In this document: positions 1,699-61,228 of the stretch, in pieces | Position numbering within the stretch: position 1 is the first letter of the stretch | Layout: each line of letters begins with the position of its first letter | From: a virus | Lineage: Duplodnaviria > Caudoviricetes | DNA length: 62,550 nt | Reading direction: 5' to 3' (one strand) | Virus record (IMG/VR): IMGVR_UViG_3300020045_014212 | Coordinates: 1-62,550 of that record | Translations under genes and position numbers: made by a program | The notes under the pieces: generated by a model | Database searches by the model: none | What the model was told of the DNA's origin: nothing | What the model saw: only the letters and a program-made list of their open reading frames with translations

Positions 1699-2378
1699 TC
1701 AAAAAGATACGAGGATTACTAGATAAAGCCGCCTCTACAGATAGTCTTCCTGAAAGAGAGGCCTTTATGACTAAGGCGCAGGAGCTACTTGCCAAATACA
1801 ACATAGAAATGTCTAAAGTCCAGACATTCGAAGTTGAAGGTGTAACTGAAATTCATCAGAGGTACGAAGCTGATTGGGAGAAAAAACTTGTATTTGTTAT
1901 AGCCAAACATAACTTCTGCAAAGCACTTTCCGATTCTCGCAATGGGGTTATGATGATTTTCGGAAAGAAGTCAAATATCGAAGTCGTGCAGTATATGTAT
2001 AATTTCTTTCGTTCATCACTTCTATCATTATCCTTGTCCTCATACACTTCCTTCCTGAACGAAAAATCAGAATTGGCCGGAGTTGAGGTAAACCCAAACT
2101 CTAAATACCGTACAAAATGGCTATTCGATTATTATATGGGTGGTGCATTCGGTATTGAAGCCAAAATGAAAGAAAAGGTTGAAGAGATGGGTACATACGG
2201 ACTAATACTGATTGGTGGTAAGGAGATACAGAATTATATTGATTCTCGCTATACAGTTGGAAGATCTCGTGGTCGCGCTGTTGAATACGGCAAGGGATTT
2301 GATAAAGGTTTCTCTGACGGCAAAAACATACAATTAGGACAAGCAATTTCATCATCAAGTATAAAACAAATCAAATGA
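1683..2378 (+). CDS. DUF2786-domain protein
   Basis: N-terminal KKIRGLLDKAAST...EREAFMTKAQELLAKYNI. Confidence 0.8.
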   Translation: MEDSIIKKIRGLLDKAASTDSLPEREAFMTKAQELLAKYNIEMSKVQTFEVEGVTEIHQRYEADWEKKLVFVIAKHNFCKALSDSRNGVMMIFGKKSNIEVVQYMYNFFRSSLLSLSLSSYTSFLNEKSELAGVEVNPNSKYRTKWLFDYYMGGAFGIEAKMKEKVEEMGTYGLILIGGKEIQNYIDSRYTVGRSRGRAVEYGKGFDKGFSDGKNIQLGQAISSSSIKQIK

Positions 2379-2791
2379 AAAAAACAAACAAGGAATTGGA
2401 AACAAGAATCATGGAACTTTCAACCATGAATGAAAAATTAAGAACCGTCAATGAGAAGCTCGAAGGCGAAAATATAAACCTCGCAATAGCGCGAGACAAT
2501 TTGGAGCACAAACTTTTCGCCGCCGACCAATTAAACATCGCGCTTGTACAAAGGGCCATTGACTTCAGAAACCCGCAGGACGCAGCTTCTAAAGTCCTCG
2601 AATCACTCTTTAAACTTCCATTGTCAACTGGTACGGAATTTGTTTGCCAACTGCACGCTAACTTTTCTGAATACCTGCGCCTGACCGAAGGGAAAAGGAG
2701 GAATCAACACGCATTCTCTAGGAAGATGTTGGAAAAGTTAACCGATATGTCTTCTGACGTTGTTGACGGAAAGGTTGCTTTTGAAAGATAA
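2375..2791 (+). CDS. Coiled-coil hypothetical protein
   Basis: Heptad-rich N-terminus; ATGA overlap. Confidence 0.7.
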   Translation: MKKTNKELETRIMELSTMNEKLRTVNEKLEGENINLAIARDNLEHKLFAADQLNIALVQRAIDFRNPQDAASKVLESLFKLPLSTGTEFVCQLHANFSEYLRLTEGKRRNQHAFSRKMLEKLTDMSSDVVDGKVAFER

Positions 2792-2940
2792 TTAGAAAAG
2801 AAAATGTAGGCTTAAAAGTAGCCATCATCCAAGGAGTGACATTTTGCAAATATCGAGAGCCTACAACGATTTGAAACGTTAGAAACGAAAGATTAGGGTA
2901 TTCAGATAGTCTTTAGTGTAATAACACATTCTTTCTAATT
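2790..2940 (+). ncRNA. Candidate structured RNA mimicking the 23S rRNA uL11-binding (GTPase-associated, H43/H44) domain, with a 78-nt insertion
   Basis: AUGUAGGCUUAAAAGUAGCCAUCAUCCAAGGAGU (2804-2837) and GUGUAAUAACACA (2916-2928) align to E. coli 23S 1057-1090 and 1091-1103; closed by AATTAGAAAAGAA/TTCTTTCTAATT stem. Confidence 0.8.
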
Positions 2941-2948
2941 TACTCTTG

Positions 2949-2984
2949 CCCCATACCTGAAAAGGATGGGGTTTTGAGGTGAAA
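2949..2984 (+). promoter_or_regulatory. Bulged-A hairpin + U-tract + GGUGAAA element (copy 1)
   Basis: CCCCAT-A-CCT GAAA AGG-ATGGGG TTTTGAGGTGAAA. Confidence 0.75.
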
Positions 2985-3157
2985 TGAATTTCAACTACAA
3001 CAACCCCCGCGAGTTCAACCTTGATGATATGGAAAAAGATCTCATACTCAAGGTAATGAAAGTGACCGGAATCAAAATACAAGCCTGCAAAATACTCGGA
3101 ATAACCGACAGGTGTTTAAGGGATAAAATCAAAAAACATGGTATAAAATGGGAATAG
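2984..3157 (+). CDS. Fis-like helix-turn-helix protein (57 aa)
   Basis: Hand translation MNFNYNNPREFNLDDMEKDLILKVMKVTGIKIQACKILGITDRCLRDKIKKHGIKWE fits the Fis/NtrC C-terminal HTH pattern. Confidence 0.75.
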   Translation: MNFNYNNPREFNLDDMEKDLILKVMKVTGIKIQACKILGITDRCLRDKIKKHGIKWE

Positions 3158-3723
3158 CTTCACTCTCTGACTACAGGAAGGAATTTAAGTTTCATATAAA
3201 TAGAGGATTGTGTGGTTTGTCATGCAATGTAATTTTAAAAGGTAGGCGCAAATTTGATTTTGACGTATTTTTACCTTCTATTGGTTGCAATCTTCAGAGG
3301 AAACACGTCTGGACATTGGAACAAAAGCGGGAACTGATTTTTTCCATTATAAAGGGTGTTAATATTGGTAAAATAACACTTATTCAACACGAAACAAAAG
3401 ATGATACAATATATCAAGTTATTGATGGCAAACAAAGGCTGTCTGCTATAATTGATTTTATCTTTGGTGTGTTTGAAATAATCCTTTGTGATGGAGTGTC
3501 ATATACCTATTTCAATCTCCCTAAAGACATAAAACAGGAAATAACACTTTTCGATATAATCTCGGATATTGGATATTCTTATCACGATAGGCCAATAACA
3601 GATAAGGAAAAGATTGAATGGTTTGAACTCATAAATTTCACAGGAACACCACAAGATAAAGAACATCTAAATAAATTGAAAAATGGGAAGGATAATCATA
3701 ATAATTCTGACGGTATTCTTTGA
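3148..3723 (+). CDS. DUF262 (ParB/Srx-like) domain protein
   Basis: LQRKHVW...LIFSI and VIDGKQRL motifs; FELIN near the C-terminus. Confidence 0.8.
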   Translation: MGIASLSDYRKEFKFHINRGLCGLSCNVILKGRRKFDFDVFLPSIGCNLQRKHVWTLEQKRELIFSIIKGVNIGKITLIQHETKDDTIYQVIDGKQRLSAIIDFIFGVFEIILCDGVSYTYFNLPKDIKQEITLFDIISDIGYSYHDRPITDKEKIEWFELINFTGTPQDKEHLNKLKNGKDNHNNSDGIL

Positions 3724-3813
3724 TATAATCGTTATTTGGTGGTGCGAAGACAAAATACCGCCAATCTTTCCTTTTCTATTGTGTTGCGTCATAACAATAA
3801 TATCATTTCTAAG

Positions 3814-4425
3814 ATGTATGCCTCGTATATAAGAGTTTCAACCAAATCCCAGGATTTAGGACTTGACGCACAACGAAAAATGTGTGAAAAGTATAATCCT
3901 GTTATTGAATTTCAGGAGAAAGAAAGTGGCCGTAATAATAGTCGGCCAATCCTCGCGGAGGCCGTTAGGTATTGTAGGGAGAATGGAGCTATTCTGGTTG
4001 TGGCCAAACTTGACCGCTTAGGCCGAAATGCATGGTACATGCTGAAGTTAATAGAAGAAAGTGGCATAGATTTTGTATTTTGCGATAATCCATCCGCAAC
4101 AAAATTAACCATTGGCATTCTAGCTGTTATCGCAGATGATGAAGCGAGGAGAATTAGCGATAGAACTAAAGCTGCGCTGGCTGTTTTGAAGGAGCGCGGG
4201 GTTAAACTTGGAGGAACTATGAACCCTTCCGAAAAGGATAGGGAATTGGCCGTTATTGCGGTACGGGAAAAGGCAGAAAAGAACGAAAACAACGTCCGAG
4301 CTCGCGCCATTATCTCTTCCATTAAAGGGACATTAGAAGAAAAGGCTAACTACCTGAACGCACATGGATTTAAAACCTCTAGAGGAGGATATTTTTCACC
4401 GACACAAATAAGGAGATTGACATGA
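3814..4425 (+). CDS. Serine recombinase (resolvase/invertase family)
   Basis: YIRVST, Q-rich N-terminus, ESG...RP.L, LVVAKLDRLGRN, ISDRTKAAL...GVKLG; start moved to MYASYIRVS. Confidence 0.92.
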   Translation: MYASYIRVSTKSQDLGLDAQRKMCEKYNPVIEFQEKESGRNNSRPILAEAVRYCRENGAILVVAKLDRLGRNAWYMLKLIEESGIDFVFCDNPSATKLTIGILAVIADDEARRISDRTKAALAVLKERGVKLGGTMNPSEKDRELAVIAVREKAEKNENNVRARAIISSIKGTLEEKANYLNAHGFKTSRGGYFSPTQIRRLT

Positions 4426-13358: not shown

Positions 13359-13421
13359 CAAATATACGACAAAAATAGTCAAAAACAAATTTTTTTTTGG
13401 GTTTTTTTTGTTGTATATTTG
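13359..13421. promoter_or_regulatory. Divergent Bacteroidota-type promoter pair
   Basis: TATATTTG on minus (13359-13366) and plus (13414-13421) between divergent operons. Confidence 0.8.
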
Positions 13422-32456: not shown

Positions 32457-32466
32457 CGTTAGATTT

Positions 32467-32510
32467 TTTTCACCTCAAAACCCCGTTCCTTGTGAGGATA
32501 CGGGGTTTTT
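32467..32510 (-). promoter_or_regulatory. Bulged-A hairpin + GGUGAAA element (copy 4)
   Basis: CCCCGT-A-TCCT CACA AGGA-ACGGGG TTTTGAGGTGAAA. Confidence 0.75.
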
Positions 32511-33545: not shown

Positions 33546-33554
33546 TGTAAAGTT

Positions 33555-33594
33555 TTTTCACCTCAAAATCCCGCAATCCAGTAAGGATGCGGGT
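33555..33594 (-). promoter_or_regulatory. Hairpin + GGUGAAA element (copy 5)
   Basis: CCCGCATCC TTACT GGA-T-TGCGGG ATTTTGAGGTGAAA upstream of the capsid gene. Confidence 0.7.
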
Positions 33595-34852: not shown

Positions 34853-34890
34853 CAAATATACACACACATTCGGCTGTACGAACAAACCAC
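34853..34890 (-). promoter_or_regulatory. Promoter for the head-tail operon
   Basis: TATATTTG at 34853-34860 with TTTG about 21 nt upstream. Confidence 0.7.
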
Positions 34891-42108: not shown

Positions 42109-42160
42109 CAAATATATGGTGTTCGTAGGACAAAAACAAATTAATGTTTTGTTAAATTTA
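42109..42160 (-). promoter_or_regulatory. Promoter for the portal/neck/baseplate operon
   Basis: TATATTTG (42109-42116), TTTG upstream, TTAACAAAACATTAA further upstream. Confidence 0.65.
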
Positions 42161-58660: not shown

Positions 58661-58947
58661 TACAAATATACGTCACTATCTGTTAGGAATCCAAATTTAT
58701 TTTGTTAACGAATAGTTATTACTCTTCCAATGTGATAATAAGGAGCCGCGCACGCGATATACAACAAAAAAATTGGATTGCAAAATCATTAACAAACATT
58801 AACAAATACAACTTCCAATGTTTAATTTTAGGACGAGGATACGTTAACAGATCTTTAACAAAAAAACACGAAAATAAATTAGGAAAGTGTCTTGTGGGGT
58901 TGTATATTTGCATTGTAATTAATCACTAACAACAAAAAACAAAAAAC

Positions 58948-59940: not shown

Positions 59941-60205
59941 TATCTTACATATTTGAAAAAAAATAAACTGTAATTAGATTGATATAGGATTGTTCCTATA
60001 TGCCATTCTACGACCTAAAATTATTTTGTGTAGGTAGGTATCATTTTAATTTTGAAGGTCAGGAATCGACTGCCATGTGGCAAGGAATTGATTTTTCTAA
60101 TGATAGGTATATGTGGTGGGGTGGGTTGATGTTAACAAAACTATAACAATTATTTTTTTGTTTTTTGCTATTATTAGTTGTATATTTGTGAAACAATTGG
60201 GAGAT

Positions 60206-61180: not shown

Positions 61181-61219
61181 CCCGCTACCTTTAACAAGGA
61201 GCGGGTTTTGGAGTGAAAA
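61181..61219 (+). promoter_or_regulatory. Bulged-A hairpin + GAGUGAAA element (copy 9)
   Basis: CCCGCT-A-CCT TTAACA AGG-AGCGGG TTTTGGAGTGAAA; ATG at 61229. Confidence 0.7.
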
Positions 61220-61228
61220 GATTATAAT

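Follow-up and report, generated by a model that had tools for sequence, protein, structure and literature searches.

Known systems closest to the element

The GTPase-associated centre (GAC) of bacterial 23S rRNA (top of H42, H43 and H44; E. coli positions 1051-1108) corresponds to the 58-nt uL11/thiostrepton fragment. The C-terminal domain of uL11 binds this domain as a free fragment, and its fold depends on tertiary contacts, ions and uL11. The contacts in its solved structures are the 1072.(1092-1099) triple, G1071.(G1091-C1100) and U1060-A1088, and U1060, G1071, C1072, A1077 and A1088 are among the bases that make such contacts. Leaders of ribosomal-protein operons that mimic rRNA, such as the L10 leader (RF00557), are cellular and cis-acting and regulate their own gene. 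Among phages, the available text of one report describes GOLLD and ROOL as large structured RNAs whose function is not known and whose frequent position by tRNA genes suggests co-transcription (PMC5737381). A survey of structured RNAs in IMG/VR lists 8,495 candidates from DNA viruses, all of them anonymous; the accessible part of that paper mentions no rRNA-like candidate and reports that no rRNA prediction overlapped any candidate (PMC10690425).

Here we describe a non-coding element of about 150 bases, at 2790-2940 on the plus strand of a 62.5-kb tailed phage genome, which rebuilds the uL11-binding part of 23S rRNA, the part that also meets the translation GTPases. We refer to the whole stretch of 62,550 nt that was analysed as the window. 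The element and its relatives share with the 23S GAC a near-identical core (26/34 and 10/13 bases in the window), the same helices, the 1082-1086 pair and the 1072.(1092-1099) triple, which in both is limited to the same two forms, and the equivalents of U1060, A1088, G1071 and A1095 are conserved across the phage family. Unlike the 23S GAC, the phage element is free-standing and has a covarying stem of its own for H42; an insert, followed by UUUR, divides it at 1090/1091 and brings its total length to 74-416 nt; and it has a fixed A1101 where the true 23S sequences examined have U. A1067 is not invariant in the family, and the element is encoded by phages, mostly as one copy per genome.

Like the L10-type leaders, the element is an RNA off the ribosome that mimics a protein's binding site on rRNA, and both sites belong to the same stalk region. 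Those leaders, however, resemble rRNA only in local shape, whereas the phage element is an almost base-by-base copy of the domain, is unlinked to ribosomal-protein genes and matches no Rfam leader. With GOLLD and ROOL, as the available text of PMC5737381 portrays them, it shares being phage-borne and often beside tRNA genes, but neither has a sequence or model match to the element and neither is a copy of an rRNA domain. Members of the family may be among the 8,495 survey candidates, since these come from the same data source, IMG/VR (PMC10690425, from its accessible part).

The first-pass annotation, made from the letters alone, knew of no named family for the element, and Rfam 15 contains none: the whole window gave no match at the gathering score, be it to a riboswitch, a ribosomal-protein leader or any other curated model, and 2700-3050 gave no rRNA match at E <= 10. 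When 16 other member loci were searched, the sole match outside the tRNA clan was a local one to the GAC part of LSU, whose 31.4 bits fall short of the gathering score of 50. A cellular rRNA match extending beyond the domain had been named as evidence against mimicry; H42 and the region from H45 onward (RF02541) show no similarity to the sequence flanking the element. Our literature search, with the supplementary candidate list of PMC10690425 lying outside it, returned no description of a phage GAC mimic. A phage-encoded, free-standing copy of a functional centre of the ribosome is a kind of mimicry for which we found no description.

Architecture of the element

Two segments of the element carry the resemblance to 23S rRNA, as had been noticed at the outset. 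An ungapped alignment of 2804-2837 to the GAC of a true enterobacterial-type 23S gene (locus L059) has 26 of 34 bases identical, and one of 2916-2928 has 10 of 13. The second-best match to the 34-mer anywhere in the window, on either strand, has 21 of 34 bases, and in 100 mononucleotide shuffles the maximum match averaged 21.4 and was at most 24.

Position equivalents follow E. coli numbering, anchored on the L059 23S gene. The equivalents are U1060 at 2807, A1061 at 2808, A1067 at 2814, U1072 at 2819, C1082/G1086 at 2829/2833, A1088 at 2835, U1090 at 2837, U1092/A1099 at 2917/2924, A1095 at 2920 and A1101 at 2926, and they agree base by base with those assigned before.

The element, all on the plus strand, is closed by a stem that replaces H42 and had been put at about 12 bp: its 5' strand (2790-2802) pairs with the complementary 3' strand (2929-2940) in 6 + 6 bp with one bulged A. 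The upstream ORF ends in a stop codon at 2789-2791, two bases of which lie in the 5' strand, and the 3' strand lies inside the covariance-model match described below (2792-2940). The H43 copy (equivalents of 1057-1081) occupies 2804-2828, within the 26/34 match, with a lower stem at 2804-2806/2826-2828, an upper stem at 2809-2811/2821-2823 and a loop at 2812-2820. It is followed at 2829-2837 by the 1082-1086 turn, C...G in the window, and GAGU (equivalents of 1087-1090). A lineage-specific insert then interrupts H44 at 2838-2911, closed by GAC (2838-2840) and GUC (2909-2911), and the linker UUUR, here UUUA (2912-2915), leads into the H44 hairpin and 3' strand (2916-2928, equivalents of 1091-1103), which hold the 10/13 match. 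The insert had originally been given as 78 nt; its GAC/GUC closure stands, but the last four bases (2912-2915) belong to the family-wide linker, so the variable insert proper is 74 nt. The window forms all H43, H44 and 1082-1086 pairs of the GAC fold, and its 1072.(1092-1099) triple takes the form U.(U-A).

A family of phage RNAs

The same architecture (closing stem, H43 copy, GAGU, variable insert, UUUR linker and H44 copy) is present in 154 other IMG/VR loci, which contain 120 distinct insert lineages, and the element belongs to a large phage RNA family. The window's member has every family part: the self-closing stem, H43, GAGU, an insert with a paired base, UUUR, and H44 with A1101. Cultured Pseudomonas, Aeromonas, Xanthomonas and Cronobacter phages also carry members. 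Other phages do carry relatives with covarying pairs, whose absence had been named at the outset as a refutation. A model built from 44 other members, with the window left out, finds 2792-2940 on the plus strand at 89.0 bits (E 8.5e-23); the next-best match in the window reaches 9.1 bits (E 0.82), which indicates a single copy. Members from cultured phages outside the training set score 83-99.5 bits. Of the 50 member-bearing records searched, out of about 164, most hold one copy per genome. A search of 185,579 species genomes for the U-type core gave 24 stretches and no mimic: 10 are true 23S, and the other 14 have no rRNA flanks and look coding-like by eye.

Covariation and conserved bases

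Helices were assessed in an alignment of 45 of the 112 canonical members, restricted to spans of at most 170 nt and cleared of near-duplicates by hand. Counts per position over 112 rows omit the 19 of 131 unique members that have indels or a second insertion. Bases fixed by the search patterns (3' motif, 5' core) were discounted, and conservation was read from unbiased rows, including a 44-row set found by the 5' pattern alone, from which L059, as true 23S, and three truncated loci were removed.

Across the 45 members, 95.3% of helix cells are paired, where shuffles reach 69.6%, and compensatory changes are seen in 17 of the 22 pairs. The covariation score of 0.687 was reached in none of 500 shuffles (0.191) and drops to 0.11-0.19 when partners are slid. 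Compensatory changes occur in all eight pairs of the closing stem (89.7% of cells paired) and in all three pairs at the base of the insert (97.0%). Within H43, the 1058-1080 pair is formed in 112/112 rows with six pair types and the 1057-1081 pair is A-U in 103 rows and C-G in nine, and the 1082-1086 pair is formed in 106 of 112 rows (U-A 62, C-G 33, A-U 11).

The tertiary contacts of the GAC fold are retained as well. The 1072.(1092-1099) triple is C.CG in 80 and U.UA in 32 of the 112 rows and never mixed; rows found without the 3' half give 34, 10 and none, and the 1072-1099 proxy in the 45-member alignment gives C/G in 30, U/A in 15 and none mixed. In unbiased rows, U1060 (79/79), G1071 (77/78), C1072 (78/78) and A1077 (78/78) are fixed or nearly so, as are G1087, A1088 and G1089 (80/80 each) and U1090 (77/77). 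In the H44 loop, G1093, U1094, A1095 and A1098 are each present in 44/44 rows, while 1096 is A in 31, G in 12 and U in one, and all four bases are seen at 1097; in Xanthomonas phage XaC1 the 1095 equivalent is G. The linker reads UUU in 44/44 rows with G (41) or A (3) as its fourth base, and A1101 is present in 45/45 family rows. A1067, described at first as retained, is indeed present in the window, but this does not hold as a family rule: among the 79 of 83 unbiased rows with a base there, it is A in 64, G in 12, U in two and C in one.

Helices and tertiary triple are thus kept by compensatory change, which supports the original proposal of a selected three-dimensional mimic: helices covary, the closing stem and insert base among them, and the triple switches in step. 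That the element is instead a captured piece of host rRNA, functionless and decaying, might be thought from the closeness of its core to rRNA, and phage records can hold real rRNA, as in Paenibacillus phage Pd_22F with a nearly whole 23S (2617.6 bits). This sole case seen, however, looks like host DNA in the record. Decay also sits badly with covariation in helices that are not part of rRNA, with the invariant A1101 and UUUR linker that are missing from true 23S, and with the lack of rRNA similarity around the element. Among the matches to true 23S, moreover, the U.(U-A) form was confined to Moorena and to Patescibacteria-type genomes, which supply 9 of the 24 matches; none came from Bacteroidota, the likely host phylum. 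We regard this explanation as barely credible.

Genomic setting

The element lies directly behind an ORF at 2375-2791 (138 aa), which belongs to no family in Pfam or PHROG and gave nothing above noise in a PDB search; neither this protein nor that of 1683-2378 has a relative in viral contigs, and a blastn search of the GenBank phage collection with 2300-3800 returned no match. The large terminase has distant matches only, the best at 27% identity (E 1e-29), to Flavobacterium phages, and the host phylum is likely Bacteroidota.

Downstream, the minimum-free-energy fold contains a hairpin (2949-2958/2962-2971) followed by a U4 tract, together spanning 2949-2975 on the plus strand, and these probably end the transcript that carries the element. 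A simple terminator scan did not flag the hairpin, as its tract has only four U. GAGG and then an ATG at 2984 come next, so that the window reads element, hairpin and U-tract, ribosome-binding site, gene. The string formed by the U-tract and leader occurs four times in the window at up to three mismatches, against 0.37 expected.

No promoter above chance was found at the element. A sigma-70-like site of its own at 2763-2792 (10/12 matches) was considered and rejected, three such sites occurring in the region with 2.3 expected; it would initiate transcription within the closing stem. Bacteroidota-type promoter motifs number 11 in the window against 4.9 expected, and none is near the element.

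Of the 131 unique members, 74 have a tRNA gene no more than 1 kb away, in every case on the member's own strand, and for 41 of them the distance is at most 20 nt; 45 have no tRNA in the examined locus. A tRNA neighbourhood is therefore common in the family without being universal, and it is absent here: the window genome has no tRNA genes. With this, its position behind an ORF and no above-chance promoter, the window's member is atypical.

The first-pass annotation had offered, among other roles, a uL11-sensing cis switch. Such a leader or attenuator would control the downstream Fis-like, DUF262 and serine-recombinase genes, and the order of parts in the window is that of an attenuator. However, no neighbouring protein family is conserved, the largest cluster covering 10 of 131 loci, and the members share no downstream gene; most members sit in tRNA arrays; and the hairpin and leader that separate the element from the gene are a generic module repeated in the window genome. 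Complementarity between insert and H43 is likewise not enriched (3/112 members at p <= 0.05; p = 0.07 for the window). We therefore disfavour a cis switch and consider it highly improbable.

Possible functions

The reading we favour, and which we consider evenly balanced between right and wrong, is that of a stable imitation of the GAC that would bind host uL11 off the ribosome and act as a sponge or decoy. Judged by its sequence, the element would be a gene, or a module borne in a 3' UTR, for a stable non-coding RNA that folds unaided into a copy of the GAC (H43 and H44, the uL11 and thiostrepton domain), with a private stem closing the copy in place of H42 and the insert placed at the 1090/1091 bulge of H44. 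We infer that this RNA would accumulate during infection and act off the ribosome, where it would occupy a partner that recognizes the GAC fold. The proposed partner is host uL11, which would make the RNA a uL11 sponge or a decoy particle loaded with uL11. Speculatively, this would most likely weaken the uL11-dependent steps of the host's response to infection, RelA activation first. Sequestration of uL11 with damping of RelA, and a decoy for a defence protein or thiopeptide, were among the roles first put forward, and they are candidates only.

A stable RNA fits the position of members in tRNA arrays and on the tRNA strand, such arrays being the usual setting of abundant stable RNAs. For uL11, the tertiary-contact bases are fixed, whereas the exposed base that factors and thiopeptides meet, A1067, is looser (64/79), a pattern consistent with a partner that recognizes the fold and not that tip. 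Free variation in the closing stem makes a contact of the H42/uL10 type unlikely. The uL11 would presumably be that of the host, since the phages lack their own: PF00298 was found in none of 50 member-bearing records, or of 21 that are at least 90% complete, and in 14 of 14 control genomes.

Other points count against this reading. A sponge would face competition for uL11 from tens of thousands of ribosomes, the GAC fold is not the one preferred by nearest-neighbour energies in the window, and the window's member is atypical. Moreover, to our knowledge the uL11 C-domain needs neither A1095 nor a purine at 1067, and the retention of A1095 (44/44) and of a purine at 1067 (76/79) suggests that the partner reads the factor-binding cleft as well.

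These same two bases would suit an RNA that, together with uL11, forms a false docking site for EF-G, EF-Tu, IF2 or RelA-type factors, and EF-G does bind oligonucleotides of the GAC domain in vitro. Against such a decoy, a copy of the sarcin-ricin loop is absent from the window (no match at up to two mismatches), one-mismatch matches occur in 1 of 50 member-bearing records, which is the rate of the reversed-pattern control, and the closing stem has no conserved uL10/bL12 platform. We think a decoy for translation GTPases or RelA very unlikely.

A decoy could also be directed at an attack on the GAC itself: the free RNA, probably loaded with uL11, would soak up a host defence effector or a competitor's toxin that modifies, cuts or blocks the ribosomal GAC, so that translation during infection is protected. 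The family sits among phage tRNA genes, which, on a widely held view, stand in for or outlive host tRNAs attacked by defence nucleases. A GAC-specific toxin exists in Tre23, which, according to the available text, ADP-ribosylates H44 of 23S at about nt 1095-1098 and blocks the GTPase of EF-G (PMC8661411), and four H44 loop bases, G1093, U1094, A1095 and A1098, are invariant in the family. Yet 1096 (A 31, G 12, U 1) and 1097 (four bases) vary inside the mapped Tre23 window, and XaC1 has G at the 1095 equivalent. Defences that cut rRNA and tRNA during infection are also described, namely Retron-Kva2 (bioRxiv 10.64898/2026.07.14.738597) and RAZR (PMC13017515), but in the accessible parts of both reports they appear non-specific, and our literature search found no anti-phage system aimed specifically at the GAC. 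Since a decoy substrate is also a weak answer to a catalytic enzyme, we consider protection from such an attack unlikely.

In the most far-reaching reading, phages of many lineages may make this RNA as a uL11-loaded GAC decoy to neutralize a host response that acts through the GAC, a suggestion that we offer tentatively and hold to be somewhat doubtful. That response could be RelA-type alarmone signalling or an undiscovered immune effector targeting the GAC. If true, the decoy would be the first RNA counter-measure to imitate a functional centre of the ribosome. The element, virus-encoded and free-standing, is faithful to 23S down to a tertiary base triple. Binding to uL11 or to a factor directed at the GAC, if it occurs, would uncover either a new means by which phages control translation or stress signalling, or else a hidden class of host defences aimed at the GAC. 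Cultured members allow direct testing, in Pseudomonas phage pf16 with P. putida and Pseudomonas phage UNO-G1W1 with P. fluorescens.

Inserts and alternative folds

In the minimum-free-energy fold of the window, 2805-2813 of H43 pair with 2857-2865 of the insert. The forced GAC fold has -7.7 kcal/mol against -28.1 for this alternative, under a nearest-neighbour model that ignores tertiary contacts, ions and uL11. A structural switch between insert and H43 was considered as a family trait and rejected, 3 of 112 members reaching p <= 0.05 with G-U pairs allowed. The window's 74-nt insert has no relative among the 154 family loci; with no relative of insert or phage found, its inner fold is a weak prediction.

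The inserts raise the further prospect that they are the working part and that the GAC fold is a chassis, a nuclease-resistant scaffold clamped by uL11 and comparable to tRNA scaffolds. The range of spans, 74 to 416 nt, and the many insert lineages would suit this, as would the recurrence of some insert classes. However, the conservation shared by the whole family falls on the GAC core and on no insert, members with a tiny insert exist (L019, whose whole element spans 74 nt), and the window's insert stands alone among the 154 loci, with no related phage found. A scaffold for cargo therefore seems distinctly unlikely. The family also shows where one of the best-studied RNA tertiary folds tolerates insertions in nature, and it supplies sequence variants of that fold. 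Read by eye from the sequences, one recurring class of insert has a conserved hairpin that combines a GNRA-type loop with a UAA bulge, and another, among large inserts, has a k-turn-like base.

A phage-borne copy of the GTPase-associated centre

The first-pass annotation had described an RNA element at 2790-2940 (+) resembling the GTPase-associated centre (GAC) of 23S rRNA, which comprises H43 and H44. As the reference for comparison, we chose the true 23S gene present at one viral locus (L059) over a remembered sequence. The window aligns to its GAC segment without gaps, as had been claimed, with 26 of 34 positions identical across 2804-2837 and 10 of 13 across 2916-2928; the runner-up 34-mer match in the window reaches 21/34, and the maximum over 100 shuffles never exceeds 24. 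Nucleotides 2790-2802 pair with 2929-2940 in a closing stem of 12 bp with a single bulged A, in agreement with the proposed ~12 bp, and every base identity assigned earlier to a GAC-equivalent position (E. coli numbering) is correct. The 78-nt insert placed at 2838-2915 is present, except that 2912-2915 (UUUA) forms a family-conserved linker outside the variable insert. The observation of a GAC-like element is confirmed and its structural reading is strongly supported.

This 62,550-bp window is a complete IMG/VR virus record, that of a contractile-tailed phage. Among its gene products are a tail sheath, tape measure, large terminase, head protease, DNA polymerase/primase and helicase, and its only relatives in GenBank are distant. 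The start of the element overlaps the stop codon of a 138-aa ORF, which is coiled-coil-like and without known family; a DUF2786/DUF7168 protein and a pyrimidine-dimer glycosylase-like ORF are also encoded upstream. Directly following the element are a hairpin with a U4 tract (2949-2975, +), a ribosome-binding site and a Fis-type gene, and the region 2984-4425 encodes, in one direction, a 57-aa Fis-family HTH protein, a GmrSD_N/DUF262 protein and a small serine recombinase. The combination of hairpin, U-tract and GAGGTGAAA leader string at which the element ends recurs ahead of genes in this genome, at 2949-2986, 32466-32482 (-), 33554-33570 (-) and 61204-61220 (+) (4 matches at ≤3 mismatches vs 0.37 expected), and looks like a generic terminator/leader module of the phage. 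No promoter for the element was detected above chance level.

The element belongs to a large family

Searching IMG/VR for exact occurrences of the 20-nt H43 core returned 70 loci: the real 23S gene at L059 and 69 others built like the window element. Two IMG/VR scans with an H44-side motif gave at least 120 matches each. Among the 290 other viral loci from the matches listed, at least 154 have both halves in order within a span of 74-416 nt, and adding the window gives 131 unique sequences; 43 additional loci are divergent or truncated candidates, and the inserts fall into 120 lineages by shared 9-mers. A covariance model gave 87 matches in 100 loci, confirming most of the divergent or truncated candidates from the first 3' scan. 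A search of this kind through phage sequences had been proposed as a check, and it has yielded many homologues with covarying pairs.

When built from 44 members with the window excluded, the model scored the window element at 89.0 bits (E 8.5e-23), the next match being 9.1 bits; with the window included, the score was 94.1 bits. The model detected no second copy in the window genome, and found the element in 49 of 50 member-bearing virus records, mostly as a single copy and with two clear copies in one record. Among cultured phages, unannotated members occur in Pseudomonas phages pf16 (94.4 bits, between tRNA-Asn and tRNA-Pro) and UNO-G1W1 (99.5 bits, between tRNA-Trp and tRNA-Arg), Aeromonas phage 4_4572 (87.7 bits), Xanthomonas phage XaC1 (85.2 bits) and Cronobacter phage GAP32 (83.1 bits), while Pectobacterium phage CBB was matched by BLAST only.

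Secondary and tertiary structure are conserved

In a 45-member alignment, 95.3% of cells are paired under the proposed structure, versus 69.6% in column shuffles. The covariation score is 0.687, versus 0.191 in shuffles (0/500 reach 0.687) and 0.11-0.19 once partners are displaced by 1-3 columns, and both-sided changes occur in 17 of the 22 pairs. All 8 closing-stem pairs and all 3 pairs at the insert base covary; as these helices are absent in rRNA, the signal could not have been inherited from it.

Among the 112 canonical unique members, 1058-1080 is paired in every case, using six pair types, and 1082-1086 is U-A in 62, C-G in 33 and A-U in 11. Without a single mixed case, the tertiary triple 1072.(1092-1099) takes the form C.(C-G) in 80 members and U.(U-A), as in the window, in 32. 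Mixed forms are likewise absent from the 45-member alignment (30 vs 15) and from rows found without use of the 3' half (34 vs 10). In counts free of search-pattern bias, U1060 (79/79), G1071 (77/78), A1077 (78/78), A1088 (80/80), G1089 (80/80), U1090 (77/77), A1095 (44/44) and A1101 (45/45) are fixed, and we take these to be the bases that make the named tertiary contacts in solved uL11-RNA structures. Positions that are exposed or already known to vary are less constrained in the unbiased rows: A1067 is looser (A 64, G 12, U 2, C 1), A1096 is variable (A 31, G 12, U 1), and all four bases occur at 1061 and at 1097. Comparative analysis shows a self-contained RNA domain in which selection preserves the GAC architecture at both the secondary and the tertiary level.

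Comparison with true 23S rRNA

A captured rRNA fragment is very unlikely in view of the covariation in the non-rRNA helices, the family's own invariants and the lack of rRNA flanks; the first-pass view of a selected 3D mimic, and no decayed piece of rRNA, is upheld by the covariation, the triple and those absent flanks. Three family invariants are missing from the true 23S sequences compared here: the base A1101, the insert and the UUUR linker that follows it. Rfam returned no rRNA match and no other family in the window, and in 16 other member loci the sole signal outside the tRNA clan was a sub-threshold local LSU match to the GAC part.

The window contains 11 Bacteroidota-type promoter motifs (TTTG, 17-23 nt, TAnnTTTG) versus 4.9 expected, a number reached in 0/100 shuffles; seven of them read TATATTTG, and examples lie at 13359-13389 (-), 34853-34886 (-), 42109-42140 (-), 58663-58695 (-) and 60157-60188 (+). 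Because of these motifs, and because matches to the large terminase resemble Flavobacterium phages, the host phylum is likely Bacteroidota. An exact 20-mer scan of 185,579 species genomes found the window's U-type core in 24 stretches, none of them a mimic: 10 are true 23S (Moorena 3, Patescibacteria-type 6, endosymbiont 1) and 14 are without rRNA flanks. Bacteroidota rRNA is absent from these exact matches, so the U-form of the window is no simple copy of host rRNA.

The true 23S of Candidatus Phlomobacter fragariae (L302) combines U at the 1072 equivalent with C-G at 1092-1099, a mismatched triple that is perhaps unsurprising for an endosymbiont undergoing degeneration. Paenibacillus phage Pd_22F (MZ092003.1) carries an unannotated, almost complete bacterial 23S near the record end (L318 395-3034; RF02541, 2617.6 bits), which we regard as probable host DNA or an artefact of assembly rather than a mimic.

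Genomic context and possible function

A tRNA gene lies within 1 kb of 74 of the 131 unique members (within 20 nt in 41), on the same strand in all 74, which confirms the strand of the element and suggests that it may be co-transcribed with stable RNAs. The window's member is a stand-alone version, placed directly 3' of an ORF in a 62,550-bp genome with no tRNA genes. No protein family recurs beside the element, the largest cluster among 1,932 ORFs within 3 kb covering 10 of 131 loci. The cis switch for downstream genes suggested in the first-pass annotation does not fit, being at odds with the genomic contexts across the family. A switch between the GAC fold and an alternative energy-fold pairing found no support across the family.

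The isolated rRNA GAC domain binds uL11 tightly. Since the phage RNA copies it so faithfully, it should bind host uL11 inside the cell, and we infer an off-ribosome imitation of the uL11 site that would serve as a uL11 sponge or a uL11-loaded decoy. uL11 itself is encoded in 0/50 member-bearing records, versus 14/14 control genomes. That the closing stem varies so freely speaks against a contact of the uL10/H42 type, and a complete factor-docking site is argued against by the missing sarcin-ricin loop: the window has no copy, and 1/50 member-bearing records has one at one mismatch, which is the control rate. The relaxed A1067 suggests that the fold matters more than the A1067 tip, and the invariance of A1095 leaves room for a role of the cleft.

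In the strongest competing explanation, the RNA would be a decoy that draws off a toxin or immune effector aimed at the GAC. Attack on this site has a precedent in Tre23, which ADP-ribosylates H44 at about 1095-1098 (PMC8661411). No anti-phage system specific to the GAC site was found in the literature searched.

Known relatives

The suspected lack of a named family proved right, with no matching model in Rfam 15 for the window or the 16 other member loci, and full-text searches turned up no published account of a GAC mimic encoded by a phage. Passages from two large surveys of candidate structured RNAs (PMC5737381 and PMC10690425) do not mention one; supplements of the latter may list members anonymously. 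The closest known RNAs are the 23S GAC domain and those leaders of r-protein operons that mimic rRNA. Unlike these leaders, the element stands alone, is carried by phages, matches the rRNA core almost base for base and has no link to any r-protein gene. The family is of high interest, as it is large, undescribed as far as searched, present in cultured phages and directly testable.

Variation in the inserts

Many unrelated members (e.g. L003, L004, L050, L090, L122, L317, L320) share an insert motif that is absent from the window element: a short hairpin whose loop is of the GNRA or UAAC type, bordered by ACC and UAAGG and lying just 5' of where the second strand of the stem at the insert base begins. 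This motif might be a docking module. In one class of members (e.g. L009, L023, L037, L114, L145, L195, L265), large inserts of 205-410 nt start with NNC-GAG and end with YUNA-GAG-NN, a pair that reads like a kink-turn at the insert base; no known Rfam family was detected in five of these long-insert members. Six loci (L119, L231, L151, L152, L160, L108) carry a second insertion within H43, right after the 1076 equivalent, which is a second permissive site of the fold.
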